A stretch of DNA of 64,000 nt, taken from NCBI GenBank assembly GCA_963771075.1, contig CAVYSE010000020.1, positions 11,385 through 75,384 of the forward strand, written 5' to 3'. The notes under the pieces are model-generated. The model saw only the letters and a list, made by a program, of their open reading frames with translations. It was not told where the DNA came from and searched no databases. Position 1 is the stretch's first letter; the number at the start of each line of letters is the position of its first letter. Source of the DNA: a candidate division FCPU426 bacterium. GTDB lineage: Bacteria; Oederibacteriota; Muellerivitia; Muellerivitales; Muellerivitaceae. Of the stretch, positions 12,016-40,303 are shown in pieces. The position numbers were made by a program, and so were the translations under genes.

Positions 12016-12081
12016 AAGATGGTTTCCTGCAGTTGGGTAACCCGCAGTGGGGCGGGTCTGCGGGGAGCGACGACCGGAGGA

Positions 12082-22065: not shown

Positions 22066-22345
22066 GGTGGAAAAAGGTTACCAGGAACATATCCAAATCC
22101 TTTACGCCTTGGGTGTCATGGATCGTCGCGGCTGAAAATTAAAATCAATCGGTGAATTAATTTGAAATTTACATTCCCGCCTCTACAAGATTGATAGTAT
22201 CATTCATGAAGTTCGACGCCCCCTTTTTGAAATTGAGGGGAATGTAAATAAAAAATTAGGGGAGCCGCGATGAAGCATCAAGGGTGGACTTTATTTCTCG
22301 TGTTGGTATTAGGCCAAGCCTTGGTCCTGTCCCACCTGGCCTGCG
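22066..22345 (+). repeat. Copy B of the duplicated leader plus signal-peptide segment
   Basis: See copy A. It contains a plausible extended -10 promoter element, TTGATAGTAT. Confidence 0.8.
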
Positions 22346-23907
22346 GGGGCGGAAACAACAACCCGACGACTCCTGGCGGCAATAATAACGGGTCCAACCC
22401 AACCTCAACCTTTACCACGACCGCCCAAGCGACCAACACCCAGACTTCCAGCCCTACCTTCACGAAAACCCTTGTCAATTCGCCCAGCCCCACCTTGACC
22501 CTCACGAACACCCCGACCAACTCGCCCACGGGCACTCCCACTGTTACCTCCACCCCGACCTTGACGGGAACCATCACGAACACGCCAGTCTTCACCGCTA
22601 CCGGCACCATCACCGGCACGCCGACCTCCAGCTCGACTGAAACGGCCACCGATGTTCCTAGCGGCACCCCCACAACCACGTCCACTACCACGTCCACCCC
22701 CATCATGACCGGAACCCTCACCTTTACCGCGACCGCTGACCCTTCCGATACGCCTACCGCCAGTGGGACCCCAACCGCGACCTTAACCCAAACGGATACA
22801 CCCACGGACTTGCCCACAAGCACGCCGACCGACCTGCCCTCCGCCACGCCCACCCAAACCTCGACCTCGACGGTGGGAATTGGTTCCGCTTGCTCGTACG
22901 ACAGTGACTGCGCCACCGGGGATTATTGCTCGGGCGTGACCTGCGCGGCGAAATTGAACCAAGGCAATGTTTGCTCGGCGGCCGATCAATGTATAACCGG
23001 TAATTGTGTGGATGGTTATTGTTGTAATACCGCTTGCGGAAGTGGTGTTTGTTCGGCGGTCCTAAAGGGCGGAGGATCGAATGGGGTTTGTGGTTGTATA
23101 GCGATTGGCCTTCCATACCCCTTGAGTCCCAATCAATGCTGTACCAGTTACGGGGCAGGCGGGGTTTGCCAAAACGCGCCAACACTCACGCCCACCGTTA
23201 CCCCGACCTCCACGCCGTCCGCGACCCCCACCTCCACACCCACCGCCAGCCCCACCGTTACCTTAACCGGCACTTTCACTCCCACGCCTGGGTCGAACGG
23301 TGTGACCTGGACTTTCTCGGATTGCGGGTCGGGCAGTTCCGGCCCCACGGACGGATGGATTCAGGCCTCCCCGACATCCCCTTCAACTTTGGTTTCCATT
23401 CAAACCATCACGGGTTTGGGTAGTGGGCTTGTTGGTTCAAGCACTTGCGGATTGGCTTTCTATCTCCCCGGAGGCGCCATGTCGAATGGTATGTGTAGCT
23501 GGCAGTCAACGGGGACGGACATCGAGACAGTTTCGGCCTACGCTAACTTATCTGTACCCATCAACTGGACCCAAAACGGGTTAACCACGATATCCCTTCA
23601 ATTTACCTATAATGGTTATGGAGCCGGTATCCAACCGATCATCGTGGCGGGTTCCGGTCCGACGACTTACAGTGGAACCGTCGTTAATGACAACCAAAGT
23701 TCACCCAGTTGGTTGACGGCCATCTTTAGTCCATCCTTCAACGGTTCTGATGGAACCCAAGTTTTGGCGGCCGGTTTAGTTGTGAACGAAATGGCTCCAC
23801 CCCTCTCCATGCCCAATCCACATCCCCCCCCCGCTACTATTTGCGCGCCGTCCGGTGAAGAATTGGGCCCTGAAACCATATACGTTGATAACATTGAATT
23901 TTATTGA
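22270..23907 (+). CDS. Paralogous lipoprotein: identical signal peptide, Pro/Thr/Ser-rich region, Cys-rich module, C-terminal beta-rich domain
   Basis: The first ~25 codons and ~200 bp of upstream leader are near-identical to gene 19881..21974. Cys-rich GSACSYDSDCATGDYCSGVTCA...CCNTACGSGVC region. Confidence 0.8.
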   Translation: MKHQGWTLFLVLVLGQALVLSHLACGGGNNNPTTPGGNNNGSNPTSTFTTTAQATNTQTSSPTFTKTLVNSPSPTLTLTNTPTNSPTGTPTVTSTPTLTGTITNTPVFTATGTITGTPTSSSTETATDVPSGTPTTTSTTTSTPIMTGTLTFTATADPSDTPTASGTPTATLTQTDTPTDLPTSTPTDLPSATPTQTSTSTVGIGSACSYDSDCATGDYCSGVTCAAKLNQGNVCSAADQCITGNCVDGYCCNTACGSGVCSAVLKGGGSNGVCGCIAIGLPYPLSPNQCCTSYGAGGVCQNAPTLTPTVTPTSTPSATPTSTPTASPTVTLTGTFTPTPGSNGVTWTFSDCGSGSSGPTDGWIQASPTSPSTLVSIQTITGLGSGLVGSSTCGLAFYLPGGAMSNGMCSWQSTGTDIETVSAYANLSVPINWTQNGLTTISLQFTYNGYGAGIQPIIVAGSGPTTYSGTVVNDNQSSPSWLTAIFSPSFNGSDGTQVLAAGLVVNEMAPPLSMPNPHPPPATICAPSGEELGPETIYVDNIEFY

Positions 23908-24584
23908 TCAGCTTCACTAAAGCGCGATCCCTGAAAGGATTTGACCTATCAAGCGGTATCGTTCAATCCCCGGGTTCCCGTTAATTGTGTCGGCAATATT
24001 TTCACATGCCTGCGGTACCAGTGAAAAAAGGGGCAAAACCCCTTTTTCCATCCTGCTACCTCACCCTGAGGCGGCGTGACAAATAACCGGGCCGGAAAAA
24101 ATTTCAGGTTTTGAATTTCTGCTTTCTGCCAAATCACGCCTTCCCATGGCTTCTTTACCAAACACCGACCCACTAGGAGAAACATTTGTTGGCGGCCGAG
24201 ACCAATGAAAATTAAAATCAATCGTACGAAGCCCATCATCTGGGTGGTGTCCACCCAATTGGCCAAAGCCACCCTGTGGGACTCAGTTATCAAATTTAAG
24301 GGTTTTTTGAAGATTTTGGTAAATCAACTCTTTTGCCGTTTGATTTCTTCCCCATCGGAAAGTTCGCTTTCCCTCCTGTCCGGCTTCAGGCCGGTCCCAG
24401 GGCCTAAAGCGGCCAGATGAGGGACGGCATTCTCAGAAATACCCCTAATTCCCTTATTTGAATTCGTGGCTTGGTCACGAATTACCCTCCTTCGGGGCCT
24501 ACAGCGCCTAATCGTACGGCAGAACTCTTCGAAATCCCTTCATTTTGTGTGACCGTAATACGGGCTCGTAAGGCCATCGCTTCG

Positions 24585-24692
24585 AGGTATGGGAGGGGTA
24601 ATAGCCGAAGCGCCCGCCCAACCTTTTCCGAGGCAGACCCTTACCGGTCCGTAATGCGTCTTTGGGTCAGTATCGGGTTGGCGCTTTGCATT
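24585..24692. repeat. Diverged direct repeat copy 1 (~110 bp). Conserved core CGGTNNGTAATGCGTCTTTGGGTCAG[T/G]ATCGGGTTGGC.
   Basis: Aligned by eye to 25155..25258. The core 38-mer is near-identical. Flanks are similar but diverged. Confidence 0.6.
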
Positions 24693-24907
24693 GGAATATG
24701 CACAATCCGACTGCCCGAGTCCTCATAAAAGAAAATCCTCAAAAAACCCTTAAAAATGGCATTCGCCCGGCGAATGCGAAAAATAAGGGTTTTTCGCGTG
24801 GATGGTTTGGGTACTAATAGACCCTTTAAAATAAGGGATTTGCTTGTCCGAGGATCGGACAAGTGGAAATAAGGGAATTGGCCATCTCCTGGGAAAAGCC
24901 AGGGCTC

Positions 24908-24946
24908 GTTGCCAATTAACGTCAGGGCCTGACGTTAATTGGCAAC
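24908..24946. repeat. Perfect 39 bp palindrome: GTTGCCAATTAACGTCAGG-G-CCTGACGTTAATTGGCAAC (19 bp arms, 1 nt centre)
   Basis: Verified base by base. Candidate dimeric DNA-binding-protein site or RNA hairpin. Confidence 0.9.
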
Positions 24947-25154
24947 AAGAATCACCCCACATCTAAAACAAGGGAGTTCTAATTCGGAGTATCCGATTTA
25001 TAAAATAAGGGTTTTTTGAAAACCGAGGGAAGCCTTTTGGCATTGGCCGACCTTTGGGACTAAACCGGCCAAATGGGATAAAGCCAAATCAGAAATACTC
25101 AAATTTCCCTTATTTTTAGTGTTCGTAATACGAACAATCAAATCCCTAGCTTCA

Positions 25155-25258
25155 TGGTTGAGGAGGAGCAGAAGACGATGCGCCCGGGTTACCTTCTCCC
25201 GGTCAAACCCTAATCGGTTTGTAATGCGTCTTTGGGTCAGGATCGGGTTGGCCCGGAT
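25155..25258. repeat. Diverged direct repeat copy 2
   Basis: See copy 1. Confidence 0.6.
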
Positions 25259-26040
25259 CAGGGTTTCGATGGCCTGGTAGTTTGCGAACCAGCCCTTATC
25301 ACAAACGCCATGGTCAATCGGGGTTTATCAGGACTCCATCGTCAGGGGCTTGGTCGGATCGGGTTGAACTATCGCGGGGTAACAAAGGGCCCGGGCTGGA
25401 TCTTTTGTTCACGAAAATGAAAAAGCCCGAACAATTTTGCCCAGGCTTATTTCAACTAAACAATAAAACTAATTACTTCTTTTTCTTCTTGGCGGGTTTC
25501 TTCTTCGTGGCCACAGTGGACCTCCTTAAGTTTTAAAATCATATTGATATTAACATACTTTACCGAGAATTTTATATTTTTAATTTCAAAAAAAGAAATG
25601 TACTTCAACCGCATTTTATATTTTTTCGAAAGCAGTCGGAATGTGCGCAGAACTTGGAACAGGAATTCTTTAGAGCTTATATCCTCGGGGGCGTTAAATA
25701 GTCACGGAGTTTGCGATTAGCCACGACGGGCCATGTAGCTAAGCGCAAGCGCATGCTACAGGGCGGGGAACCACATTGGACATCTCCCAAAACGCTTTTG
25801 AACAATGTTTTCTAATAAAATCTTCCGCCCTGTAATACCTCTTCATAATTCATTGATAAAACCAGCCTAAATACCATTCTTTTGGATTTGTCAAAATCTC
25901 TTAGTGGTGTAATCATTGTTTTTACAGGCTTTTTTGTTGAATCCCTAACTGATTGAAAATAACGTAATTTTTTTGGAATAAACGGTTTCCCTCCGTCCTT
26001 TAATAGGTAGAGGAGGGGTTAGGTTAATGGAGGTATCCAT

Positions 26041-26619
26041 TTGGATGACCGGGCCTTGGTTCAAGGGCTCTTAAGTAAGGAGGGGTCTTCCGAGCGGTTC
26101 TTCTTCCATACCTACCGTCCCAAACTTTACCGCATCGCGACCTTCATCCTGGGATACAACGACCCCGAGGTGGAGGACGTGGTTCAGGAAACTTTCCTGG
26201 CCGCGCTCCAGGACCTCCCCAAATTCAAGTTCCACTGCGATTTTTTCCGCTGGTTGCGCCGCATCTGCGTTTACCGGTGTTACGAACGCATCCGCCGGAG
26301 GAAACGCCAGGCCGTCAGCGCCCACGAGGAGCTGGAAAATCTAACCCACCGGGCCGCAGTGGAAAAGGAAGATTCGAGGGCCAGGGAAGTGGAAGAACAC
26401 GATCTTTTGAAAGTTCTCCGGGAAGAGATCGCAGGTTTGGGGAAAAAGTGCCGGGAAATTCTCGAGCTGCGGGACCGGCGTGGAAAAAATTACGCGGAGT
26501 TATCCAAACTCCTGAAAGTTCCCATCGGCACCGTGATGTCCCGCCTGGCCCGGTGCAAGGAAACACTGAAGGAACGGGTGTTCAGGGCGGCCCGAAAAAG
26601 GGGGCTCCTCGATGGATAA
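26041..26619 (+). CDS. ECF-type RNA polymerase sigma-70 family factor
   Basis: TTG start 8 nt after GGAGG. Sigma-70 region 2 (..YRIATFILGYNDPEVEDVVQETFLAA..) and region 4 helix-turn-helix (..YAELSKLLKVPIGTVMSRLARCKETL..). It overlaps the downstream anti-sigma gene by 8 bp. Confidence 0.85.
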   Translation: MDDRALVQGLLSKEGSSERFFFHTYRPKLYRIATFILGYNDPEVEDVVQETFLAALQDLPKFKFHCDFFRWLRRICVYRCYERIRRRKRQAVSAHEELENLTHRAAVEKEDSRAREVEEHDLLKVLREEIAGLGKKCREILELRDRRGKNYAELSKLLKVPIGTVMSRLARCKETLKERVFRAARKRGLLDG

Positions 26620-27268
26620 ACTGATCGAGAAATTTTTCAAGTCCGAACTGACCGAGGCCGAGGAAAAGGCCCTGGCACGGAGCCTGGAAAAATCCGAGGA
26701 GGTCGCTGGGCAGTTCTCGGATAGGGCTGAGCGGGCCTATTTATCCTACGGCCTGCCCCAACCCCGAGTGCCGGGTCCCTGGACGCATTTCGTCCATTCG
26801 GCCTGGGGGAAGCTGATGCCCCTGGTTTTGGCGGTTGGCGGAATCACGGTCATATATCTAGGCACGAAGCCGGTGGTCGAACAGACACCCCCGGCGGTCA
26901 TCTCGGGCGGGGTGGAGGGGACTATGCATACACCGACGATACCGAAAGTGAAAGCACGGGTGGTCCGGCCCTCGTCCCCGGTGAAATGGCTGGGAGCGCC
27001 TCCAAGAGAGGAACTGGATACCGATTACCACCACTTGAGGGTGGTCGTGAACCAGGAGGGTGACGGAATCGTCACAGTCAGGGTTTTGGGGCCGGAGGGA
27101 AACGAGGTTCGGCGGCTTTATGACGGGCCGCTGGAAGAGGGTTGGTGGGCCTTCATTTGGGACGGCATATTAGAAAACGGTCATCCGGCCTCGCCGGGGG
27201 TTTACCGCATCGAGGTGGGAAGCGCATCCGGTATCAAAAGCCAGGAAGTTGCGGTTAATACGAAATAA
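26612..27268 (+). CDS. Anti-sigma factor: single transmembrane helix plus periplasmic FlgD-Ig / T9SS-tail-like beta-sandwich domain
   Basis: Translationally coupled to the sigma factor. Cytoplasmic N-terminal helix, transmembrane segment LMPLVLAVGGITVIYL. C-terminal ..VTVRVLGPEGNEVRRLYDG...WAFIWDGILENGHPASPGVYRIEV.. resembles FlgD-Ig-like domains. Confidence 0.7.
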   Translation: MDKLIEKFFKSELTEAEEKALARSLEKSEEVAGQFSDRAERAYLSYGLPQPRVPGPWTHFVHSAWGKLMPLVLAVGGITVIYLGTKPVVEQTPPAVISGGVEGTMHTPTIPKVKARVVRPSSPVKWLGAPPREELDTDYHHLRVVVNQEGDGIVTVRVLGPEGNEVRRLYDGPLEEGWWAFIWDGILENGHPASPGVYRIEVGSASGIKSQEVAVNTK

Positions 27269-27349
27269 AATGCTGTTGGATGGGGCCGGGAGGTGAACCC
27301 GGTCGGGGAGCCATCCTTTTATCGGTTCAAAAGATTGAGGGAGGCTGGT

Positions 27350-30300
27350 ATGAAGTTTAATCCAATGGGCGGGAATGGCTCCACTATAACCCCGGAGGAA
27401 TCATTTTTGGGTCGTAAATCCTAAGGATCCCTAGGCGTATTCTGGGCATTCCTTTTAGTCGCCGGAGGGTGGTTGTTGAGCCCGGGCGCCATCGCCCAAA
27501 CAAATACTCCGACCCTGACCGTGACGATGACTTCGACCCCGGCTCCCGTCACGGTGGAACTGACGCCGGATGTAGCGCTCTCTAACGCCACCCAAGCCCC
27601 GGGAGCGGCCAATGTCCCGGTCAGCGAGCCCTTTATTATCAACTTGTATGGACAGCAGCCCGTCACTTGGACCGCATTGACCGTGACCGCATCAGGGACG
27701 GGAAACACTGCCGGTATTACCAGTCTTCAGGTTTATCTGGACAACGATTACAGCGGCACCGTCGATGCGGGGGACACTCTCCTGGGTGCGGGCACTTTCA
27801 GCGGTTCGACCGCCACTATCCCCCTGAGCTACATTCTTTCCCCCGACGGTTTTGGTTCGTTCCTGGTTGTCGCCAATTTCTCCTCGAGCGCCGTTACTGG
27901 CACCTACGCTTTCAACATCACGGGAATGACTGGATCCTCCAATCTGCCCGTGGCCTTTACCGGTTTACCCTTCGCGGGAGTCACCATCACGATCCCCGGC
28001 CCCACGCCCACCGTGACCAATACCAGAACCATTTCCTCCACGCCGACCTCCACCCTTACTTCGACTATCACCTTGACAGCGACCGTCACCAACACCCCTT
28101 CTGGTACCTGGTATGCCACCCCCTGGACCAACACCCCCATCCCCCCAAATTCCTATACGCCAACCCCTATATTCACTTATACCCCCACGCCGGGATGGTT
28201 CAACGTGGCGTTAGGGCCCAATTCACCGACTTTTAACAATCCCTTATTGGTGGGTACCAGTAATCTCCCGGTGATCCAAGTTGTGTTGAGGAATGATAGC
28301 GGCTATTCCGCCACACTCACTGGATTGACCTTTACGGATACGGGCTCGGGCACTCCCTCTTCCGGTATTGACAGCTTCCAGCTTTATAACGACCTCAACG
28401 GAAACGGAATCGTGGACAATGGGGAACCCTTGTTGGGCGCCGCGAGTTTTACCGGTTCGACCGCCACCTTCAGTTTCACCCAGAACCTGGCGGCCGCCAC
28501 TGGAAGTGTGACCTTGCTGGCTGTCGCCGAATTCGCGTCAACGGGAAGTACGGGAACCTATACCTTCAGCGTCACGGGAGGCTCCGGATTCAACGGTTTG
28601 GGCGGCCCGGAGGGTTTCAGCAACCTTCCAGCCACCGGTGCGCCTATCACTATCACCTACCCCACGCCCACCCTGACTTCAACCAACAGCTACACACCCA
28701 CCGCTACCACCTCGGCCACCCCCAGCCCGACGAGCACCCCGACCAACTTGGGAGGCTTTACCTCCACGCCCACTCCCTGCGTCCCCGTTCTCCAATCCAG
28801 CTATACCTTCGACACGGGAACCGAGTGTTGGAGAACTTGGGGCGGGCCGGTAGGTTCTGTCCTACAGTGGGATTCAGTAGATGGCCATACCAATCCCGGT
28901 TCCTTGGAGGCCATCCTGCCCTATACGTCCGGCAGTGTCAGCCAGGCCCTGATTTTCCTGGACTTGTCCTCCGCGCCCCCGTGACCATTCCGGCGGGAAG
29001 CACCCTCAGTTTCTGGTATAAGGCCTCCACCTCGGTGGGAAACCTGCAAGTTTTCGATGCGAGCGTCACCCAGGGAAGCGGTGGACCCGTTTCCTACGTG
29101 TGGAACGATGGCAGCTGGCAATCCAGCCTGGCCACTTCCTGGACCCCGGTGACCTTTACCATGAACCCGGCGGGCCCCAACGCGGTGGAGGAGTTCGGGT
29201 TGCAAGTGCCGGCTGCGGCTGGCTCCATCACATCGCCGGTGACGGTTTGGGTCGACGATGTGACGATCAACCTGGCCGGATCGTTCACGGCCACACCGAC
29301 CGTTGGATCTACCTCGTCCAGTTGCTATCTTTTTGCGACCCAATGGGGAGGTTACGGCACTGGGGACGGTACATTTAGCGAAACCACGGGCGTGGCGGTG
29401 GCTCCTTCCGGAAACGTTTATGTGGTGGACGCCGAGAACTACCTCATCCAGGAATTCACATCGAGCGGGTCTTTCTTGACCCAATGGGGAGGATCGGGTA
29501 CCGGGTACGGGAAATTTGCCTTTCCCTGGGGGGTGGCGGTGGCCTCCTCTGGAAACGTTTATGTGACGGATATTGAAGACAACCTGATCCAGGAATTCAC
29601 CTCGAACGGGACCTTCTTGACCCAATGGGGAGGCTCGGGAAACGGGTATGGGTTCTTCACGGCTCCCTATGGCGTAGCCGTGGCCCCCTCGGGAAACGTA
29701 TATGTGGCGGATACCGAGAACAACCTCATCCAGGAATTCACCTCGAGCGGGTCTTTCTTGGCCCAATGGGGAGGCGCAGGATCCGGAAACGGATTTTTCG
29801 ACTATTCCTTGGGGGTGGCGGTGGCTCCCTCGGGAAACGTTTATGTGGCGGATTTCGGGAACAACCTCATCCAGGAGTTCACATCCGGCGGGTCCTTCGT
29901 GACCCAATGGGGAGGTAACGGCACAGGGAACGGGAAGTTTGCCTATCCCTATGGCGTGGCGGTGGCCCTCTCAGGAAACGTATATGTGGCGGATACCGAG
30001 AACAACATCATCCAGGAATTCACATCGAACGGGTCTTTCTTGACCCAATGGGGAGGCTTAGGAGCCGGAAACGGGTTATTCGACTATCCCTTGGGTGTGG
30101 CAGTGGCACCTTCGGGAAATGTATATGTGGCGGATTATGGGAACGATCTTGTCCAGGAGTTCACCTCCTGCCTTTCCCCCACGCCCACGAGCAGCCCGAC
30201 GGCCACCGTCTCTCCCACGCCTACCAGCACCAATCTAGGGGGCCTGACCTCCACCGTGACGAAGACCCCCACGACCACGGTCACCGCGACCATCACGTCC

Positions 30301-32796
30301 ACGCCGGTCTCTTGCTCCCCCGCGCTTCTTTCTTCTTATGTTTTCGATACCGGCACCCAATGCTGGACCGCTTGGGGTTCCGTCACGGCCACCGTTTCGC
30401 AGGACACGACGAACTATTACGCAGGGGGCGGCTCCCTAAAGGTCGTATTGCCCTTCACCAGCAATATCCAACAGGAACAGATCGGCATCCAGTTCCCAGG
30501 CTCGGGCGTCGCCATCCCCGCCGGGAGCACCATCAGCATGGAGGTCATGGCCTCCAACAATGGGAACGCCCTGCAATTGTTTGACCAGAGCGGCGCGAAC
30601 GCGGTTAGTTGGGACGCCGGAGGCTGGGTGAACGCGGGAGGCTATGCCGCCGGAACCTGGTTCCCGGTCTCCTACATGGTCAACCCGGGAGCACCCACAT
30701 CCGTCGTCCAATTCGGTTTGGAGGTTCCCGCGGGTTCGGGATCGAGCTACGCCAACGGACTTCCGGTCACGGTCTGGATCGACAACGTGACCATCACCCC
30801 ACCCGTTTATTGCCCGGTCACGATGGTCGACGCTTTCGCGACTGAGGGCTCGGTCAACCTCTGGGGTGGGACCTGGACGACGATCGGTTCCGCGGACACG
30901 ATTGGCGTGACCTACGACGGCCCCGGGACCAATGGGGATCCCTATTCAGCGGGTGTGACGGGAACCCTGGCCACGGGCGGCTGGGCCAATTGGTACACGT
31001 TCCTTTACGCCACCGACACGGTCTTCGACGCGGCGGCCAACGGCCTCCAGGGCATCCAGTTTTGGATGAAGGGGGACGGCGGCACCTACCGCATGGTGGT
31101 CTTTTCCCAAGCGGTGACGGACAACGACTATTACGGTGTGAATGTCACTCCTCCCAACGACGGCAACTGGCATTTTTACCCCGTGCCCTTTTCCTCCATG
31201 GTGACCGTGGGATGGGGAACCCAGACGGGCTTGCCGAGCCACTTCGGGGCCACCGACCTTTTGGGCCTCCAATTTGAGACCGTGACCGCGCCGTCCACCT
31301 TCGCATTCTCCGTGGATCAGATCGCATTTTATTGTTCCACCACGGCCGTCCCCACCCCGACCTTGACGGTTTCAGCCACGGCTACGAAGAGTCCCACCCC
31401 CACCGTGACGCCCACTCCCACAAGCACCAACCTGGCAGGTTACACCTCCACTGTCACGAAGACCCAGACAGTCACGGCTACATCCACGATGACCCTAACG
31501 CCCACCGTCACCTTGTCTCCCACGGTGACCTTGTCACCCACCGTGACCTTGTCGGTCACTCCCACGAACACCAACCTGGGGGGCCTGACCTCCACCGTGA
31601 CCCTCACCCCGACCACCACCCCCACCTCCGTGGTGGTGGCCGTCAGCTCGGGTTCCACCGGCGCCGTCAATGTCTCGCCCGGAACCAGCAACGTGCCGGC
31701 CCTGCAGGGCAACTTGATCAACCTCGGCACTGCGCCGGTCACCCTTACCAACCTGACCTTGACCGACTTCGGCACGGGAAACCCCGGGAATATCGTTACC
31801 CTCTACGCGGTGATCAACGGGTCCTACGTGAGCCCCATCTCGGCCTTTGCCGGAACCACGGCTACGATCAATTTGAACAACTACGTCCTGAATGGTTCCG
31901 CGAATCAAACCCTGCAGATCATGGTGAGTTTCTCCGACAGCGCGTTGGGAACCTACCAATTGTCGATCGGCTATTTTAACGGGATCAGCGGCAATAACGG
32001 CCAACCGGCTTCCTTCACGGGATTCCCGGTGGAGGGTTATATGGTGAATTGCGAACCGCCCACCTCGACTTTCACATCGACCCCGACGGCTTCCGCGACG
32101 GCCACCCCGACGGCGACCCTTACGGCCACTTGGAGTGCTACCGTCGTCCCCACGGGAACCATTACGGTGACACCCTCGACCTCGCCGACCGTGACCCGTA
32201 CGCCCACCATCACCTCCACCGGCACCTTCACGGCCACCCCGACCTCCACCTACTCGGCGACCCGGACCCCGACATGGACCTTCACCTAGCCCCACCCCTA
32301 CGTCCACAGCGACTTTCACGGCCACTTCTACCCCCACACCACAAACACCTCTACGATGACCCCCACGCCCACCTTCTCCGGCACCTGGACGGTCACGTCC
32401 ACCCCCACGACCACGAGTTCCCTGACGGTCACCGTCACTCCGACGATCACCGCCACGCCAACAGCGACCTCCACCGAGGTACCCCTGGTGGCCGGGTCTT
32501 CCCTGAAAGTATTGCCTCCACAAGGGGGCGCTTATGTGGCCCCGGACCCGGTCTCGGGGAATACCGCGATGTTGGCCTATTGGATGGCCTCCTCCGGAAC
32601 GGCCCATATCCGTATTTTCAACGTCGTCGGCCAGTTAACGGCAAGGCAGGATGAAGAGAAGGCGGCGGGGGCTCAATCCAGCCTGTTGAACCTGGGCGGA
32701 TACGCCGCGGGCGTGTACCTGTACAAGATCGACATGAACTACGACTCGGGCGGGACGGACTCCGTGCCGGTATCGAAGTTTTTGGTGGTGCGCTAA
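27350..32796 (+). pseudogene. ~1,800 aa secreted protein: signal peptide, Ig-like/beta domains, six-bladed NHL-repeat propeller, CBM-like modules, Pro/Thr linkers, T9SS-type C-terminal domain. Interrupted by an in-frame TAA (27422) and three frameshifts. Track ORFs 27473..28984, 28825..32289 and 32356..32796 are segments.
   Basis: ATG at 27350 with GGAGG 8 nt upstream. MKFNPMGGNGSTITPEESFLGRKS-TAA-GSLGVFWAFLLVAGGWLLSPGAIAQ is a signal peptide with an in-frame stop. A C5 run at 28970-28974 is one C short. There is a compensating +1/-1 pair in the Pro/Thr linker at about 32285 and 32340. Six NHL repeats (GNVYV.D.ENNLIQEFTS.GSFLTQWGG.G.GNG.F). The C-terminus IRIFNVVGQL...GGYAAGVYLYKIDM...KFLVVR is a T9SS C-terminal domain. 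Confidence 0.75.
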
Positions 32797-32819
32797 TGAG
32801 GCCGCAGGGAGGTAAGTCC

Positions 32820-34211
32820 ATGAAAACCACGGCTTATCAGCTCCTGGGGTGGGCACTGCTCCTGGCGTTCGCTTGGGCGGCGGCAGACAGGTGCGGAGCC
32901 CAGGCCCTTTCCACCGCGTCCATCCAGAACCCTTTTGAAAGCTCCGAGGCCTCGGCCCGCTCCATGGGGATGGGCGGCGCCTTCGTGGGGGTGGCGGACG
33001 ATTCCTCGGCTCTATTCTTCAATCCCGCCGGATTAGGAAACCTGAGGGGGATCGACCTGGCGGTCGACCACCAGATTGGTTTGGCTGGCATTACCGAGGA
33101 CCTCTTGATTCTGGGACTCCCCCTGGGCCAGGGCTATGGCCTGGGCATCAGCGGCCAATTCGTGAATTACGGCAGTTTCGACGGCAGGACTGCCGATGGA
33201 ACCCCAACGGCCAGCCCCACCGCCTACCAGGCGGGTTTCGCCCTGGGAGGGGGAATGGAACTCGTCCCGGGTTTTTTCATGGGGGCGGGCCTCCAGGGAA
33301 CCGTTCAACAGTTGTCTTTGAGTAGCTACACCCTGTTCAATGGAAACGCGGGATTGTTATATGTCATTCCAGGCGGTTGGCGATTGGGGGCCTCATACGG
33401 CGGATGGGGAACGGCGGCGGTGAACGCGAACGCCCCCGCGATCCTTCGGGCCGGGGTTTCGAAACTTTTTTCGGGAAAGGGGCCTTTCTCTCTTCTGGCG
33501 GCGGCTTCTTACGATTACGAGTCCCAATTCGGCAGTGACGCCCTCGTGGGCCTGGAGGGTGCCTACCGGAAGAACTTTTTCGTGCGTGTGGGTTTCCAGG
33601 GGAACCTGCAAGATAGCGGCATAAACGGGTTCCAGGGCCTCACGGCGGGTGCCGGCCTGGCATTCGCGGACTTCAGCCTGGATTACGCTTTCGAGCCCTT
33701 CGGCGACGTTGGTACCACCAACCGGGTGAGCCTGGCCTACCGCTTTGGGACCGAACCCACTCCGGCGGCTCCTGTCTCCAAGATTCCCACAACCCGGCCG
33801 GTCATCCAGACGACAGCCCCCAACCCAGGCCAGCCCCAGCCGGTCCAAAGCAACCCGGCAGGAACAGGCCAGTCCTTGACCGTTCAGTTTGACCTGGTTT
33901 CCCAGGACATGGCCAAAGCCCAGACCTTGGAACAGGAGGGCCGCTCGAAGGACGCGGTGAGAGCTTATCTTGCGGTCATCAAGGACGATCCCCAGAACGC
34001 CAAGGCTTGGTGGCGTTTGGGCAATCTCTACTACCATATGAACTACAAAGCCTACGCGGTCCAGTGTTTTGAAACCGTCCTCAAGTTGAAGCCTGATATC
34101 AAAACCCTGGCGGATTGGCTGGAAAAATACAAGGCCTCCCCGGAAAACCCGGCTTCAAACGCCTCTGGGGTGCAAACCCCGGTTATTCCCTCGACCCCCG
34201 GGCCCCAATAA
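32820..34211 (+). CDS. PorV/FadL-like outer-membrane beta-barrel fused to a C-terminal TPR module
   Basis: ATG at 32820 after GGGAGG. Signal peptide. SMGMGGAFVGVADDSSALFFNPAGLG is the N-terminal signature shared by FadL/PorV-type outer-membrane channels. C-terminal AKAWWRLGNLYYHMNYKAYAVQCFETVLKLKPD is TPR. Confidence 0.65.
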   Translation: MKTTAYQLLGWALLLAFAWAAADRCGAQALSTASIQNPFESSEASARSMGMGGAFVGVADDSSALFFNPAGLGNLRGIDLAVDHQIGLAGITEDLLILGLPLGQGYGLGISGQFVNYGSFDGRTADGTPTASPTAYQAGFALGGGMELVPGFFMGAGLQGTVQQLSLSSYTLFNGNAGLLYVIPGGWRLGASYGGWGTAAVNANAPAILRAGVSKLFSGKGPFSLLAAASYDYESQFGSDALVGLEGAYRKNFFVRVGFQGNLQDSGINGFQGLTAGAGLAFADFSLDYAFEPFGDVGTTNRVSLAYRFGTEPTPAAPVSKIPTTRPVIQTTAPNPGQPQPVQSNPAGTGQSLTVQFDLVSQDMAKAQTLEQEGRSKDAVRAYLAVIKDDPQNAKAWWRLGNLYYHMNYKAYAVQCFETVLKLKPDIKTLADWLEKYKASPENPASNASGVQTPVIPSTPGPQ

Positions 34212-34501
34212 TTGGGCCTTTCAGCAGGGAGCTAGTCGAGGCTCGACCCGTTTTTGGATGAAATGATGTTCAAATTGATCGTCTGACCAATGCTTTATAC
34301 TTGTCGAGTGCGTGTGGGTGGCAGCTTCATTTGGGAGGCGATTGATCAAAAAGTTGGTATGAATAACGGTCCTCTTCAACTCCATCCTCTTGCGGATACC
34401 CCACTTTCCCGGACCCCTTTTCAGCAAATCCACCGAAACCAGTTTAGGCCACAGTTGTCCGGCCACCGGCTGTCAGCAATTATTTAGAAAAAGGAGCGAT
34501 T

Positions 34502-36886
34502 ATGGAAACGATGAGAAGGGTTATAAAGATGGCCGGTTTTTTAGCCTTTATTTTTGGAGGCTTGGGAATCGGTTCGGGGCTATGGGCACAATATTCGAAT
34601 GAGGATGGGAGCGGCGATTTATGGACGGGAACGGGCTCCTCCGCCTCCGGGAATTGGAGCACCGCCACCGGTGAGTACAGCACCGCCACTGGGACAAGCA
34701 GCTCGGCATACGGACAGGCTGCCACGGCCAGCGGGCTGAGCAGCATCGCCATCGGGAATCTGAGTAATGCCGGAGCGAGTTGGACTACCGCCGTTGGATC
34801 GGAAAGCAACGCCGCCGGACTGGGCAGCTCGGCCTACGGGGATGCCGCCACCGCCACAGGAACTAGCAGCACCGCCCTCGGCAATAACAGCACTGCCAGC
34901 GGGAATTGGAGCACGGCCACCGGAGAGGGCAGCAACGCTGGGGGAACTTCCAGCGCTGCTTACGGGCAATCCGCCACCGCCACCGGATCGGGTAGCATAG
35001 CCATCGGGAATCAGAGCAACGCCAGCGGGAATTGGAGCACGGCTACCGGAGAAGACAGCAACGCCCTCGGGATTTCCAGCTCCGCTTACGGGCAAGCCGC
35101 CACGGCCAGCGGGAATTGGAGTACCGCCGTTGGGAATTTAAGCTCCGCCAGCGCGACTGACAGCACCGCCCTCGGCAATAACAGCACCGCCAGTGGAAAC
35201 TGGACCACCGCCGTGGGCGAAAACAGCAGCGCCAGCGGGGTTGCCAGCTCTGCTTATGGGCAAGCCGCCACTGCCAGCGGGCTGAGCAGCATCGCTATCG
35301 GGAATCAGAGCAATGCCGAAGGAAACTGGAGTGTCGTTGTCGGCTCGGACAGCAGCGCCACCGGGACTTCCAGCGCCGCCTATGGTCAATCCGCCACCGC
35401 CACCGGATCGGAAAGCATTGCTATCGGGAACAAGAGTAACGCCACTGGGAACTGGAGCGCCTCCGTGGGTGGAGACAGTACCGCTAGCGGAACTTCCAGC
35501 GACGCTTTCGGGCAGGGTGCCACGGCGAGTGGGAACTGGAGCACCGCCATCGGGAATTTAAGCTCTGCCAGCGCCACCGACGCTACCGCCATCGGAAATT
35601 CCAGCACAGCCAGCGGAAACTGGAGCACAGCCACCGGCCAGGGCAGCATGGCCAGCGGGGCGAACAGCACTGCGATTGGGGTAGGGAGTTCAGCCTCAAA
35701 TTATGGAAGCTCAGCTTTTGGAGCTGGCGCCACCGCCACGGGATCCTACGGCACCGCCACAGGATATGAAAGTAATGCGGTTCAAGCGGGCGATACCGCC
35801 TATGGTGTCAGCGCCATCGCTAGCGGATATTTAAGCACGGCCACGGGTTTTGCAAGCAATGCCAGCGGTTGGGAAAGTACCGCTACTGGAGTAGCCTGCA
35901 CGGTCATTGGGGATTACAGCACCGCCACGGGGTCTTTCAGTACCGCAAGCGGGACTAATTGCACCGCGAACGGATACGGAAGTAGCGCGAGTATTTATAA
36001 CAGCACCGCCACGGGATATGAAAGCATGGCATCAAATTCCTTCAGCACCGCATATGGGGCGGAAGCCATAGCCAGCGGTGAGAACAGCACTGCCACTGGA
36101 TTTTTAAGCACCGCCAGTAATACATACAGCACGGCTACAGGATGTAACAGCAATGCGAGTGGGTTGAATAGTACTGCCGCCGGTTTTAGCAGTAACGCCA
36201 GAGGTAGCAACAGTACCGCTACTGGCTCTTACAGCCAGGCCACCACAACGAATAGTTCGGCTTATGGCGTCAGCGCAATCGCAAGCGGTATCAACAGTAC
36301 TGCAACAGGAACAAACAGCACCGCCGTCAACCAAGGGGACACGGCTTACGGTGGATTCGCCACCGCAAACGGTTCTTTTAGCACATCCCTGGGGGAATAC
36401 AGCGCCTCCACGGGCGTCAATAGCACCGCAGTGGGGTCCGGAAGTATCGCCAGCGGAAATAACAGCACGGCCATCGGGGCTAATAGCGTGGCGAGCGCGA
36501 ACAATAGCGTCGCCTTGGGGACGGGGTCCTTGGCGAACCAACAAAATATCGTCTCGGTCGGAAACGCCAACACCGGTTTGACCCGCCGCATCACCAACGT
36601 GGCGCCTGGAGTAGCCAGCACCGACGCGGCCAACGTGGGGCAGTTGACCAGTTCCGCCCAGACGGCCGGGGTCATGGTGGGGGCGGCCGCCAACGCTTCC
36701 ATGGGATTGATGGGGCTTCCAGGCGCGACTCGGGTGGCCCTGGGCACGAGCGTCATGGGCAACCAGGTGGGGATGGGCCTGGCCGTACAAAGGAGCTTTG
36801 ATAGTTGGGCCGCCTCCCTGAGTACCTCCACCGATGGAAATCTTGATTACATGCAGGTAGGCGGCTCGGTCGGTATCAGCTTTTAA
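34502..36886 (+). CDS. YadA-like trimeric autotransporter adhesin (type Vc)
   Basis: Signal peptide. More than 40 head repeats of the S.A.G..S.A.G type (NSTASGNWSTATGEGSNAGG...). Neck/stalk motif NVAPGVASTDAANVGQL. C-terminal membrane anchor ending ...VGGSVGISF. Confidence 0.85.
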   Translation: METMRRVIKMAGFLAFIFGGLGIGSGLWAQYSNEDGSGDLWTGTGSSASGNWSTATGEYSTATGTSSSAYGQAATASGLSSIAIGNLSNAGASWTTAVGSESNAAGLGSSAYGDAATATGTSSTALGNNSTASGNWSTATGEGSNAGGTSSAAYGQSATATGSGSIAIGNQSNASGNWSTATGEDSNALGISSSAYGQAATASGNWSTAVGNLSSASATDSTALGNNSTASGNWTTAVGENSSASGVASSAYGQAATASGLSSIAIGNQSNAEGNWSVVVGSDSSATGTSSAAYGQSATATGSESIAIGNKSNATGNWSASVGGDSTASGTSSDAFGQGATASGNWSTAIGNLSSASATDATAIGNSSTASGNWSTATGQGSMASGANSTAIGVGSSASNYGSSAFGAGATATGSYGTATGYESNAVQAGDTAYGVSAIASGYLSTATGFASNASGWESTATGVACTVIGDYSTATGSFSTASGTNCTANGYGSSASIYNSTATGYESMASNSFSTAYGAEAIASGENSTATGFLSTASNTYSTATGCNSNASGLNSTAAGFSSNARGSNSTATGSYSQATTTNSSAYGVSAIASGINSTATGTNSTAVNQGDTAYGGFATANGSFSTSLGEYSASTGVNSTAVGSGSIASGNNSTAIGANSVASANNSVALGTGSLANQQNIVSVGNANTGLTRRITNVAPGVASTDAANVGQLTSSAQTAGVMVGAAANASMGLMGLPGATRVALGTSVMGNQVGMGLAVQRSFDSWAASLSTSTDGNLDYMQVGGSVGISF

Positions 36887-36999
36887 ATTGCGGTTTTATG
36901 ATCTAAATTTTTCTCCAAGACCCCCGGTTGACCCGCCGGGTGCCTTGGACGAATAGGCCTGTGAAATGCGGTAATAGATTTAGGGAGAGAAACCAAACC

Positions 37000-37668
37000 A
37001 TGAAAAAGATATCTACTGATGGCTTTCTAAGATGGGTTTTGCCGACCGTGCTATTCATCGGCACCCCCTGTTTACTGGGGGCTCAACCCGCCGTCGATTT
37101 CAGCAACATGGACAAGGGTTTGAGGGCCGAAAAGGCCGGGGATTATCCCCAGGCCCTGAAATGGTACCGGATGGTTGCCGATGAGGGAGCCTCCGCCGAA
37201 TGCAACATCGGCACGATGTACGCCCAAGGGTATGGGGTGACCCGAAATTACCAGGAAGCCATGAGGTGGTTTCTCATGGCCGCAGGGCAAGGGAACGCGT
37301 CGGCCCAGTGCAATATCGGAGTGATGTTCGAAAAGGGGCGTGGTGTGACGGTGGACAACCAAAAAGCCATTGATTGGTACCAAAAGGCCGCCGCCCAGGG
37401 AAACGCCCTGGCGGAGTTCAATATTGGAAATTTATACGAATCGCGGGGCAGGCCCCAGGATTACCCGGAGGCCCTGAAGTGGTACCAGAAGGCCGCCGCC
37501 CAGGGCTTTCCTCCGGCGGAATGCGGCATGGGGTCGCTGTTCGCCAAGGGCCGGGGCGTGACCCAGGATTATAAGGAGGCCTTGGAGTGGTACCAGAAAG
37601 CCGCCGCGCAAGGCTACGAGCCAGCCCAAAAGGTGATCGAAGAAATCAAAAAAATAATGGCTAAGTGA
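37000..37668 (+). CDS. Sel1-repeat (SLR) protein with signal peptide
   Basis: ATG at 37000 after AGGGAGAG. Six repeats of the ..A..WY.KAA.QG.A.A...G.MY..G.GV..D...A..W form. Confidence 0.85.
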   Translation: MKKISTDGFLRWVLPTVLFIGTPCLLGAQPAVDFSNMDKGLRAEKAGDYPQALKWYRMVADEGASAECNIGTMYAQGYGVTRNYQEAMRWFLMAAGQGNASAQCNIGVMFEKGRGVTVDNQKAIDWYQKAAAQGNALAEFNIGNLYESRGRPQDYPEALKWYQKAAAQGFPPAECGMGSLFAKGRGVTQDYKEALEWYQKAAAQGYEPAQKVIEEIKKIMAK

Positions 37669-38371: not shown

Positions 38372-40303
38372 ATGAAAATAACTTTGCCAGCGGCAGTTGT
38401 TTGTTTCCTCCTCCTCGGCTTCGCAAACCCAGTTGGCGCCCAAGTCCCGGCCAATTACAGCCTGGTTTGGAGCGACGAGTTTTCCGGCCCTCCGGGTAGT
38501 TCCCCCAACCCCGCTAACTGGGCTTATCAAACCGGCGCGACCGGATTCGGGAACAACGATCTTCAAAATTACACCGCCGACCCGGCAAACTCGCAGATTG
38601 TGGCCGACCCCAACGCCACGGACGGCAGCGCCCTGGCCATCATCGCCCTGGACCCGGGCGGCAACAACGGCCAGCTGGGCGATTACACCTCGGCGATGAT
38701 CCAAAGCCTCGGCCTGCAGAGTTTCCAATACGGCTATGTGGAGGCACGCATCCAAATGCCCACCGCGCCGGGCATGCATCCCACCTTTTGGATGATGGGC
38801 ACCGACTACCCAACCATCGGCTGGCCCAAGTGCGGCGAGCTGGACATCATGGAAAACAACGGCCAACCCGCCAACCAATCCCTCAATTTCGGTTCCATCC
38901 ACGGCCCGAACTATACTGGCGCCGAATACGGGACCACCTACACGCTTCCGGCCGGACAGCAGTTCCAAAACGCCTACCACACCTTCTCCATCCTTTGGCA
39001 GCAGGATCAGATCGCCTATGGGGTGGATGGCAACACCTACGAAACCTTCACGCCCTCGAACATCGGGGGCAATAGCTGGGTCTTCAACAACCCCTTCTAC
39101 TTTCTTTTGAGCCTGGAAATCGGGGGAAGTTGGCCCGGTCCGCCCACCGCCTCCACCTCTTTTCCCCAGACCTTCCTGGTGGATTACGTGCGGATTTATC
39201 AGCCCGATACCCCCACTCCGACGGGAGTCTGGTTGACTTCCACCCCCACCCTCACTCCCTCGCAGACTTCCAGCCCAACACCCACATTCACCCCGGGTGG
39301 GGTGGATTGTCCGGCCACGATGATCGACGACTTTGAGAACCAGGCCCTCAACGGTGTGCCCCCGGCCCGCCCCAACCTCTGGGGAGGCGCCTGGCAAACC
39401 TATTTTTCTTCCGCCACCATCGGCGTTACCTACAACGGTCCGGGGGCAGACGGCACCAACTATTCGGCGGGGATCACCGGAACCATAACTGCAAACAACG
39501 GTTATGCGGGCTGGCAGACGAAACTTTTTTCAAATTCGGCACCATTCAACGCGCCCGCCAACGGGCTCGACCGGATCCAATTTTGGTTCAGGGGGGACGG
39601 TAATGTTTACCGGGCCAACCTCTTGAACGCGGCCGTGACCGACGGCGATGCATATGGGGTGGATTTCCTTCCCCCCACGGGTGTTTGGACCTTTTACCAG
39701 GTTCCGTTCAACACCATGGCCCGGCAGGGGTTCGGTACCCAAACGGGCTTGCCCCTGCACCCCTCGGGGGCCGACTCGAAGGGGGTGGGTTTCCAGGTCG
39801 TCCAAACCCCCGCAGCTTTCGCCTACTCGGTGGACCAGGTCGCCTTTGCCTGTGATCTCCCGACCGCGACGCCTTATCTTAGCCCGACGGTCACCAACAC
39901 CCCCACGGCCAGCCTCACACCCACTATCACCCTGACGCCTACGATAACTTCCACCCCTACCATCACCTTGACCCCCACCGTCACGGGCACCCCCACGCCT
40001 ACGGCGGTGATTACTACCCAGTCCATCGGAGTGCCCTATCCAAACCCCGCAAAGGGTTTACCAGGGGTGAACTTCAATGTTCAGTCGCCAGAGGCCGCCA
40101 CCGTGGCCTGGGATGTCTTCACGACGGCCTTCAGGAAAATAGGTGGTGGAACTCAATCCATCACCGCTAGCGGCACAGTGACTTGGAACTTGAACGATAA
40201 CCAGGGCAATCCGGTGTCCAACGGCCTTTATTACGTCCGGGTGAAGGTCAATGACGGGTCGTCAACCATGACGAAGATTTTGAAGGTTCTGGTTATCCGG
40301 TAA
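38372..40303 (+). CDS. Secreted GH16 beta-glucanase (laminarinase-like), Pro/Thr linker, CBM-like module, T9SS C-terminal domain
   Basis: Catalytic motif GELDIMEN preceded by HPTFWMMG. A CBM-like ~170 aa module shared with the NHL protein (..RIQFWFRGDGNVYRANLL..YSVDQVAFAC). C-terminus VPYPNPAKGL...SNGLYYVRVKV...KILKVLVIR is a T9SS C-terminal domain. Confidence 0.85.
   Translation: MKITLPAAVVCFLLLGFANPVGAQVPANYSLVWSDEFSGPPGSSPNPANWAYQTGATGFGNNDLQNYTADPANSQIVADPNATDGSALAIIALDPGGNNGQLGDYTSAMIQSLGLQSFQYGYVEARIQMPTAPGMHPTFWMMGTDYPTIGWPKCGELDIMENNGQPANQSLNFGSIHGPNYTGAEYGTTYTLPAGQQFQNAYHTFSILWQQDQIAYGVDGNTYETFTPSNIGGNSWVFNNPFYFLLSLEIGGSWPGPPTASTSFPQTFLVDYVRIYQPDTPTPTGVWLTSTPTLTPSQTSSPTPTFTPGGVDCPATMIDDFENQALNGVPPARPNLWGGAWQTYFSSATIGVTYNGPGADGTNYSAGITGTITANNGYAGWQTKLFSNSAPFNAPANGLDRIQFWFRGDGNVYRANLLNAAVTDGDAYGVDFLPPTGVWTFYQVPFNTMARQGFGTQTGLPLHPSGADSKGVGFQVVQTPAAFAYSVDQVAFACDLPTATPYLSPTVTNTPTASLTPTITLTPTITSTPTITLTPTVTGTPTPTAVITTQSIGVPYPNPAKGLPGVNFNVQSPEAATVAWDVFTTAFRKIGGGTQSITASGTVTWNLNDNQGNPVSNGLYYVRVKVNDGSSTMTKILKVLVIR

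Follow-up and report, generated by a model that had tools for sequence, protein, structure and literature searches.

A TPR-fused outer-membrane barrel of the PorV/FadL superfamily encoded with a CTD protein, an ECF sigma factor and a CTD-like anti-sigma factor in candidate division FCPU426

We analysed a 64,000-nucleotide stretch of DNA from a candidate division FCPU426 bacterium (contig CAVYSE010000020.1; hereafter the window) that encodes a predicted outer-membrane barrel of the PorV/FadL superfamily with a C-terminal tetratricopeptide repeat (TPR) module. The barrel-TPR gene is the last gene of a conserved four-gene unit. It is preceded by genes for an extracytoplasmic function (ECF) sigma factor, a putative anti-sigma factor with a domain resembling the C-terminal domains (CTDs) of type IX secretion system (T9SS) cargo, and a secreted protein that itself ends in such a CTD. 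We found no description of the logic of this four-gene unit in the literature searched, and consider it new. As a tentative reading that falls just short of probable, we propose a surface-anchoring unit, in which the barrel would be the dedicated docking partner of the CTD and the TPR module would couple it to the anti-sigma factor, reporting its state to gene regulation.

A four-gene unit with its own sigma and anti-sigma factors

A hidden Markov model (HMM) of the sigma factor scored 233-314 bits on 15 sigma genes, all of which adjoin barrel or barrel-TPR genes, and the next match elsewhere reached 70 bits. Sigma70_r2 and r4_2 domains were identified in the sigma genes neighbouring related barrels. 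The specific sigma gene is present in the same cluster for all 15 TPR-fused barrels with DNA examined; among the other roughly 75 loci it was detected only in L006 and L007, the latter truncated by a contig end. Orthologues of the sigma and anti-sigma factors occur in the same arrangement in L001-L005, L007 and L081-L084. A reverse search from homologues of the anti-sigma factor led to three new loci, each of which (3/3) contains a CTD mini-protein, a barrel-TPR protein, the sigma factor and the anti-sigma factor. The searches for anti-sigma homologues returned 1 match with a single sequence and 15 with a profile, both limited by word indexing. At L006, an FCPU426 locus (1019..5453), the sigma subfamily is followed by a receiver-domain protein in place of the CTD-type anti-sigma factor, and after it come a PQQ-like propeller, a CTD protein and a TPR-less barrel.

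The ECF-type promoter motif upstream of the sigma gene (Table 1) recurs at the same position before the orthologous sigma genes of L001, L002, L003, L004 (twice), L005, L007 and L082, with only 12 occurrences in 1.08 Mb of unrelated loci. We did not detect a second motif on the + strand of the window between 26003 and 34211. The promoter upstream and, weakly, a terminator-like hairpin downstream suggest one transcription unit; hairpin/T-run sites are no more numerous in the region than in shuffled sequence, and the hairpin at 34235..34257 is suggestive by its position only. In L002, a second promoter motif (11288..11316) stands just past the barrel-TPR gene, before a 421-aa open reading frame (ORF) at 11357..12622. 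The sigma regulon may extend beyond the barrel gene in some genomes.

The putative anti-sigma factor has three N-terminal helices and one transmembrane helix (aa 64-84); a Pro-rich, disordered linker connects these to a predicted periplasmic beta-sandwich of the CTD/FlgD-Ig type (aa 143-215). In the family alignment, the N-terminal helical region and the C-terminal domain are conserved, one transmembrane helix is present and the linker is variable. The C-terminal sensor domain was matched to the profile of the cargo CTDs by hhalign (probability 98.5%, E 2.4e-15), scores as Pfam FlgD_ig (29.6 bits, cutoff 27) and has FlgD Ig domains as its best sequence relatives in the Protein Data Bank (PDB). 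AlphaFold2 models the sandwich with a predicted local distance difference test (pLDDT) score of 83-96, and Foldseek places FlgD Ig first, followed by weaker matches to the CTDs of PorZ, PorU, RemZ and RemA.

FecA-FecR-FecI systems and Bacteroides units of ECF sigma factor, anti-sigma factor and SusC-like protein combine genes for an autoregulated ECF sigma factor, an anti-sigma factor that senses in the periplasm and an outer-membrane barrel extended into the periplasm. Judged by its sequence, the unit described here has a comparable gene set: it co-encodes an ECF sigma factor, an anti-sigma factor with a predicted periplasmic domain and an outer-membrane protein behind a promoter of the autoregulated type. 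By analogy it may work like Fec-type signalling, but it is not a member of that class. Unlike FecA and SusC-like proteins, the barrel-TPR protein is not TonB-dependent and is without the plug and receptor domains of that family (no Plug or TonB_dep_Rec match was obtained for it), and its extension is a C-terminal TPR module. The anti-sigma sensor, unlike those of the Fec type, is a CTD/FlgD-Ig sandwich.

CTD proteins are paired with PorV-like barrels

The barrel-TPR gene lies directly 3' of the gene for a secreted NHL-repeat protein with a CTD, the stop codon of which overlaps an upstream ATG at 32796. The comparison covered 88 DNA stretches (1.38 Mb) around PorV-like barrels, including 78 barrels with upstream sequence. 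A pair was counted where an ORF on the same strand and ending in a CTD terminated between -130 and +100 nt relative to the barrel start; control ORFs were at least 250 aa long. CTD-ending ORFs lie directly upstream of 60/78 PorV-like barrels, compared with 20/857 control ORFs (2.3%), and directly upstream of 14/15 TPR-fused barrels. Stop and start codons of cargo and barrel often overlap in the paired loci. Given these proportions, the placement of the gene immediately downstream of a CTD-ending cargo, which the initial annotation had pointed out, is evolutionarily conserved and not accidental. Since adjacency to CTD genes is conserved, its proposal of a lineage-specific adaptor for CTD proteins was a reasonable first description. 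Chance or an annotation artefact was considered as an explanation and ruled out by family size and context statistics.

The passenger domains of the paired proteins are unrelated, and include NHL repeats, DUF7948+SBBP propellers, pectate lyase with malectin, PA14 with CBM9, PQQ/BamB-like propellers and an M6 protease. At four loci of one sub-lineage the partner is a CTD mini-protein of 111-132 aa, with a signal peptide and a CTD and no passenger domain, which makes these the minimal version of the unit (L083, 7606..8004; L085, 1453..1815; L086, 5753..6088; L087, 4278..4676). These mini-proteins overlap the start of the barrel-TPR gene, and sigma and anti-sigma genes lie downstream. Because the passengers vary and some partners consist of signal peptide and CTD only, the conserved partner of the barrel is the CTD itself. 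The upstream CTD proteins were also considered as PorU, as in canonical porU-porV operons, and this was rejected: nine full-length proteins match the PorU, PorZ or M6-like model in the CTD only, and no partner is a complete PorU. Tandem PorV-like barrel genes behind one CTD protein occur at L035, L041, L053, L062 and L024, which are several Margulisiibacteriota, Zixiibacteriota and other loci.

T9SS-type CTDs and PorV-like barrels have been regarded as particular to Bacteroidota and their FCB (Fibrobacterota-Chlorobiota-Bacteroidota) relatives (PMC11285876). Pairs of a CTD protein with its private PorV-like barrel nevertheless turned up across many phyla, of which several lie outside the FCB group; besides FCB phyla, they are present in Elusimicrobiota, Firestonebacteria, Margulisiibacteriota and FCPU426. 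This cross-phylum pairing is a new pattern, with no description found in the literature searched; the search returned nothing relevant linking PorV to Elusimicrobia, or T9SS to candidate phyla.

The NHL cargo of the window is split in the assembly into 27473..28984, 28825..32289 and 32356..32796. Within the region 27268..32796, an in-frame stop lies between an upstream ATG and a segment near 27.4 kb that resembles a signal peptide, the reading frame shifts at about 28.9 kb, and the TAG at 32287 precedes probable compensating shifts in a Pro/Thr linker. The breaks stem either from misassembly of sequence of low complexity or from decay of the gene.

Architecture and family of the barrel-TPR protein

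The gene occupies the ORF 32796..34211 on the + strand, with a likely start at the ATG at 32820, 7 nt downstream of a GGGAGG ribosome-binding site; the 463-aa database protein P0001 agrees with this start. We predict a Sec-exported outer-membrane protein composed of a plugged compact barrel, a flexible tether of about 45 residues and a small TPR module. The AlphaFold2 model, built on a 45-sequence alignment (mean pLDDT 84), contains 14 strands at aa 78-309 (pLDDT mostly >90), disorder at aa 317-357 and 5-6 helices at aa 362-447 (pLDDT 95-97). In the plug motif, N68, A70 and G71 are invariant in the 45-sequence alignment and P69 is at least 90% conserved. Outer-membrane barrels with an even number of strands have both termini in the periplasm. 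Because both ends of the 14-strand barrel lie there, the TPR module must hang in the periplasm.

The tether differs in length and sequence among family members. The TPR module carries a family signature, AWWxLGNxYY...YAVQCFExVLxLxP...WLEKYK, with W397, Y404, W433 and Y437 invariant. Between the tether and the first TPR helix lies the segment LTVQFDL(P/V)S (aa 353-360; 33876..33899), in which L353 and F357 are nearly invariant. This segment could be a strand that pairs with the edge of a beta-sandwich partner.

By sequence the protein is clearly related to the PorV/PorQ family, yet it is sub-threshold. The NCBIfam model NF033709 (PorV/PorQ family) aligns with aa 48-317 over model positions 7-326 of 326, with 76.5 bits against a cutoff of 90 (E 2.8e-21). 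The equivalog cutoffs for PorV (NF033710, 22.5 vs 250 bits), PorQ (NF033711, 51.9 vs 220) and PorV2 (NF052325, 43.9 vs 325) are not reached. Pfam TPR_2 (33.8 bits) and TPR_11 (32.8 bits) both score over their cutoffs at residues 373-434. Foldseek against PDB returned PorV (8gl6_F) as the top match (E 3.3e-11, TM-score 0.62 on the target), with FadL/TodX structures at ranks 2-18 and other porins also among the matches. A sequence-profile search of PDB likewise retrieved PorV (6h3i_F, E 7.8e-16) as the sole barrel among a mass of TPR matches. We therefore assign the protein, from sequence and predicted fold, to the PorV/FadL superfamily with a C-terminal TPR module; it is not a canonical PorV by any curated model.

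The initial annotation had called a PorV/FadL-like barrel fused to a TPR module, and both domain models and predicted structure bear this out: the NF033709 match at E 2.8e-21, the two TPR families above cutoff, and the modelled barrel, disordered linker and TPR helices, with PorV 8gl6_F as the closest solved structure. It had related the protein to the cargo shuttle PorV, which is the nearest solved structure, but no curated PorV, PorQ or PorV2 model passes its cutoff. In the HMM searches that it had suggested, TIGR04183 was passed by the tail of the NHL cargo, NF033709 matched end to end below threshold, and Toluene_X gave no match.

PorV and PorQ (6H3I; 8GL6 chain F) are, like the barrel-TPR protein, 14-strand FadL-like barrels with an N-terminal plug. 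They are tied to type A-like CTDs, and in the barrel-TPR family this tie is seen in conserved gene adjacency. Unlike them, the barrel-TPR protein is more compact, with short loops and a periplasmic TPR module, and scores under the family and equivalog cutoffs. It is also multi-copy, each copy having a private partner and a private sigma/anti-sigma pair, and the phylum that carries it does not belong to the FCB group, with no T9SS core seen in the window or the related loci.

The same fold raises a different reading, in which the protein is a FadL-type importer or sensor of a hydrophobic compound or of a breakdown product made by neighbouring enzymes, with the TPR module signalling to the anti-sigma factor in the manner of polysaccharide utilization loci or of FecA. 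The FadL/TodX-like fold and the invariant NPA plug motif agree with it, several partners are glycan-active (pectate lyase, GH28, CBM9), and the logic of sigma factor, anti-sigma factor and outer-membrane protein resembles cell-surface signalling. However, plug motif and FadL-like barrel are both present in PorV-family proteins and do not discriminate FadL from PorV, and PorV outranks FadL in Foldseek and in the PDB profile search. Toluene_X (PF03349) gave no match to the barrel-TPR protein at E <=0.1, and UPF0164 (PF03687) reached 14.7 bits, under its cutoff of 21.4, at aa 54-135 only; a few homologues have weak precomputed Toluene_X matches. No genes for fatty-acid or hydrocarbon catabolism lie nearby in the window, and the partners are functionally unrelated and sometimes a CTD alone, which points to CTD pairing rather than to a shared substrate. 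We regard an importer as very doubtful.

A barrel with a TPR module has a precedent in Treponema pallidum, where TP0548, TP0859 and TP0865 (UPF0164) are modelled as 14-strand FadL-like barrels with an NPA/NAA plug motif and, presumably in the periplasm, a helical C-terminal extension that includes a TPR motif (PMC8407342). Many homologues of the barrel-TPR protein carry precomputed UPF0164 matches. The treponemal proteins differ in that they are thought to import lipids or flavins, and neither CTD partners nor sigma/anti-sigma factors are reported for them (PMC8407342).

The CTDs and the question of a T9SS

Four proteins of the window had been credited with T9SS sorting domains, namely the NHL cargo, a GH16 glycanase, a secreted protein at 17444..18619 and the anti-sigma factor. 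The four CTDs are indeed mutually homologous (E 1e-15 to 3e-19 with our own HMM), but only the NHL tail passes TIGR04183 (26.5 bits, cutoff 23). The GH16 tail falls narrowly under the same cutoff at 21.8 bits, and the 17444..18619 protein has no curated-family match at E 1e-3, NCBIfam included. Among 54 upstream tails from related loci, TIGR04183 was found in 38, the PorZ tail in 38, the PorU tail in 32 and FlgD_ig in 33. Searched against PDB, the CTD profile found the CTDs of PorZ and PorU best, FlgD next and then the CTDs of T9SS substrates. By sequence, T9SS type A tails and FlgD-Ig domains appear to form one continuum here. The initial annotation had held that its reading would fall if the CTDs were generic FlgD-Ig domains; because they score as both, this distinction fails to separate the hypotheses. 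CTDs of the PorZ/PorU type stay on the protein after secretion (PMC11285876; group III in PMC7712824), and PorU and PorZ form the attachment complex with PorV and PorQ (PMC11285876).

We searched about 38 ORFs of the window with NCBIfam and Pfam and identified no T9SS core gene, a result that is uninformative for the genome as a whole. Inspection of the large ORFs in related loci revealed no core gene either, and no ORF of SprA size without a CTD. T9SS genes are described as absent outside FCB phyla (PMC11285876). Neither the absence from the window and loci nor the published statement on FCB limits is decisive.

The barrel-TPR protein could be an ordinary accessory of a complete T9SS encoded elsewhere in the genome: as a paralogue of PorV/PorQ it would shuttle or attach a single cargo, with the TPR module as a cis scaffold like SprE or PorE and the sigma/anti-sigma pair serving co-regulation only. 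PorV as the best structural and PDB sequence match, and CTDs that match TIGR04183 and the PorZ and PorU tails, agree with this reading. CTD proteins far outnumber barrels, so that a general export route must exist, and periplasmic TPR proteins occur in T9SS complexes (PMC10994853), the translocon including the TPR lipoprotein SprE (PMC10994853). Yet the PorV, PorQ and PorV2 equivalog models fail widely, T9SS genes are described as absent outside the FCB phyla (PMC11285876), among which FCPU426 is not placed, and several paralogues per genome each have their own sigma/anti-sigma pair (L004, L084). This reading also leaves the strict co-occurrence of TPR module and CTD-type anti-sigma factor unexplained, and we consider it unlikely. 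If the lineage does have a full T9SS, the range of that system would be extended and a class of regulated, cargo-specific PorV paralogues added to it.

Distribution and fusion variants

The TPR extension had been thought unique to this protein, which our searches contradict. A word-indexed search found at least 45 full-length homologues with 27-58% identity, and about 50 proteins of the same architecture. When 1.84 billion representatives of 50%-identity clusters were searched exhaustively with a profile, about 101 of the 150 top-ranking matches covered both barrel and TPR module. A scan of species-representative genomes with an alignment of the 10 closest sequences placed the fused form in metagenome-assembled genomes (MAGs) that bear the label candidate division FCPU426, together with a small number of MAGs without a label. 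The same scan found TPR-less barrel relatives in Elusimicrobiota, Firestonebacteria, Zixiibacteriota, Margulisiibacteriota, Coatesbacteria, Cloacimonadota and Bacteroidota. Several paralogous barrel-TPR copies are present per genome, each with its own sigma and anti-sigma factors (L004, L084).

FCPU426 is a phylum of soil, peat and hot springs, and one paper ties it to the 'Goldbacteria' cellulose degraders; NCBI taxonomy places it outside the FCB group. The published work on FCPU426 that our literature search found is silent on secretion.

Other C-terminal fusions on PorV-like barrels are present in homologues P0056, P0065, P0073, P0084, P0099, P0105 and P0107. The domains fused in relatives are OmpA, CarboxypepD_reg+OmpA, TPR+FlgD_ig+OmpA, LysM, SH3, FlgD_ig and HEAT. 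The combinations with CarboxypepD_reg+OmpA and with TPR echo the domain set of Porphyromonas gingivalis PorE (TPR/OmpA).

This variety bears on a reading in which anchoring is the sole role of the protein: the barrel docks the CTD, the TPR module is a periplasmic strut or handle for peptidoglycan-associated or BAM-type partners, and the sigma pair senses something else, such as envelope stress. Domains like OmpA, CarboxypepD_reg+OmpA, LysM, SH3, FlgD_ig or HEAT at the same C-terminal position fit a strut, as does P0049, which has the TPR module and no nearby sigma gene. In P. gingivalis the periplasmic protein PorE pairs with the barrel PorP (PMC9143113), which also fits. Against this reading, of all the fusions it is the one with a TPR module that goes with the CTD-type anti-sigma factor, as observed in 15/15 loci and in one co-absence, and the sensor of the anti-sigma factor shares homology with precisely the domain paired with the barrel. 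A pure anchor is in our view improbable.

Proposed mechanism

In the surface-anchoring and sensing scheme that we propose, the barrel would dock the CTD encoded just upstream and hold the cargo at the cell surface, for which PorQ-PorZ, PorV-PorU and PorP/SprF-like barrels with type B CTD proteins may serve as analogues. The tethered TPR module would span the periplasm and bind the CTD-like domain of the anti-sigma factor, or would compete for that domain with incoming cargo CTDs or arbitrate between the two. The anti-sigma sensor, for its part, would be suspended by a Pro-rich linker from the inner membrane. Occupancy of the anchor would then set sigma activity and expression of the unit, in a loop like that of cell-surface signalling. 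Because the unit has an ECF sigma factor and a CTD-like anti-sigma sensor, the likely role of the TPR module shifts from cargo shuttling towards signalling. The observations establish architecture, predicted fold, homologies, conserved gene order and the co-occurrence of TPR module and CTD-type anti-sigma factor. The binding of the CTD by the barrel, the contact between TPR module and anti-sigma factor, the direction of regulation and the crossing of the outer membrane by the cargo are the parts of the scheme that we infer.

Several observations weigh against this scheme. The barrel scores under the curated cutoff of every PorV/PorQ model, and the inter-strand loops predicted by AlphaFold2 are all short, with at most 14 residues. 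PorV binds CTDs via long extracellular loops, aided by or inside SprA (PMC10994853); because the loops here are short compared with the CTD-gripping loops of PorV, a PorV-like binding mode is not assured. The cargo gene of this window is disrupted. P0049, a TPR-fused homologue known from a gene list, has no sigma gene within 8 kb, and the joint absence of TPR module and CTD-type anti-sigma factor was seen at a single locus, L006. CTD proteins exceed barrels in the loci (126 vs 80), so that most CTD proteins are without a private barrel. Finally, neither a T9SS core gene nor another translocon was detected in the window or in the roughly 1.4 Mb of related loci, which leaves the route of the cargo to the surface unexplained.

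A bolder version of the scheme, which we hold to be rather unlikely, is a self-contained display and sensing module independent of the T9SS translocon, the pair of CTD and barrel being a widespread anchoring system that is perhaps ancestral to T9SS attachment. In this version the minimal barrel would capture the CTD of its partner, and the TPR module would report occupancy to an anti-sigma sensor that mimics the CTD.

The closest precedents for the anchoring and signalling halves of the scheme come from T9SS biology. Type B CTD proteins anchor on cognate PorP/SprF barrels, complexed with periplasmic PorE (PMC9143113), and these systems have, as in our proposal, a dedicated surface-anchoring barrel and a periplasmic partner. 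They differ in having a PorP/SprF barrel rather than a PorV/FadL-like one and a CTD of type B rather than type A/FlgD-Ig-like. Their periplasmic module, PorE, is a separate protein and is fused here, and the PorP-PorE unit includes no sigma/anti-sigma pair.

The small CTD protein PorA of P. gingivalis binds PorV, reaches the surface without the T9SS translocon, feeds PorXY-SigP and controls the ECF sigma factor SigP (PMC7712824). The PorA-PorV-PorXY-SigP pathway is a partial precedent for the signalling half, and the mini-proteins of L083 and L085-L087 recall PorA and Fjoh_0547. The PorA pathway differs in using a two-component system and no CTD-like anti-sigma sensor, in a PorV without a TPR module, and in genes that do not form one operon.

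In one lineage, then, a CTD/barrel pair is wired to its own ECF sigma and anti-sigma factors via seemingly matched domains. If the proposed contacts are true, the unit would be a simple, genetically compact model of how a FadL-like barrel recognizes a CTD in the absence of the 36-strand translocon. It would also represent trans-envelope signalling of a new kind, in which the sensor of the anti-sigma factor imitates a signal for secretion or anchoring, and would give a handle on enzyme display by little-studied polysaccharide degraders of soil and peat.

Features and other contents of the window

Table 1. Positions of the four-gene unit, its parts and related CTD proteins in the window
Feature	Position	Strand	Evidence and remarks
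Secreted protein with Pro/Thr linker and CTD of the same type (...KKVLLVR)	17444..18619	-	Own CTD HMM E 2e-15
ECF-type promoter motif, GGAATA-N18-TTTAA	25975..26003	+	Upstream of sigma gene; family consensus GGAATA-N18-CTAAG
ECF sigma factor of a subfamily found only beside these barrel genes	26041..26619	+	Homologues in L001-L007, 36-71% identity
Putative membrane anti-sigma factor, 218 aa	26612..27268	+	Overlaps sigma stop by 8 nt; FlgD_ig 29.6 bits
Secreted NHL-repeat/CIA30-like cargo with T9SS type A-like CTD (CTD ~32521..32793)	27473..32796	+	Six NHL repeats, CIA30 match, TIGR04183
Barrel-TPR protein: PorV/PorQ/FadL-superfamily outer-membrane barrel with periplasmic TPR, 463 aa	32820..34211	+	Pfam/NCBIfam, AlphaFold2, Foldseek
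Signal peptide, ~aa 1-28, ...CGAQ/A	32820..32903	+	Hydrophobic helix aa 2-22 in model; segment variable across family
Plug region with N68-P69-A70-G71 motif, then 14-strand beta barrel, aa 29-312	32904..33755	+	
Disordered Pro-rich tether, aa 313-357, ending in LTVQFDL	33756..33890	+	pLDDT <50 at aa 317-357
TPR module, ~2.5 repeats, aa 358-447	33891..34160	+	Pfam and AlphaFold2 helices
Terminator-like hairpin and T-run	34235..34257	+	24 nt past barrel-TPR stop; weak evidence for operon end
GH16 glycanase with CTD of the same type, outside the operon	38372..40303	+	Glyco_hydro_16 72 bits; own CTD HMM E 3e-19

Upstream of the operon, 2.1 kb (23907..26041; GC content about 0.45) contain no convincing ORF, several short inverted repeats and two copies, about 70% identical, of an element of some 230-300 nt (24389..24682 and 25045..25252). 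No Rfam family reached its gathering score in the window, this region included. Before it lie two genes (19836..21974 and 22270..23907), of which one encodes an MXAN_6577-like cysteine-rich protein (183.6 bits) and the other a secreted Pro/Thr- and Cys-rich protein with no family match.

Large proteins with autotransporter-associated beta-strand repeats (TIGR02601) and EprS-like C-terminal regions are encoded at 2..2803 and 6391..11265; because of these, type V secretion would also be in use in this organism. The region 34502..37668, immediately 3' of the barrel-TPR gene, encodes a protein of 794 aa that looks like a trimeric autotransporter adhesin, having 21 YadA-head repeats as well as a YadA stalk, and then a four-repeat Sel1 protein. 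The window also contains a cluster resembling those for sulfate assimilation (54400..62707), with a porin of the O/P type, a solute-binding protein, two permeases and an ABC ATPase, together with a protein of the 3'-phosphoadenosine-5'-phosphosulfate (PAPS) reductase type and a GTPase of the EF-Tu/CysN kind.

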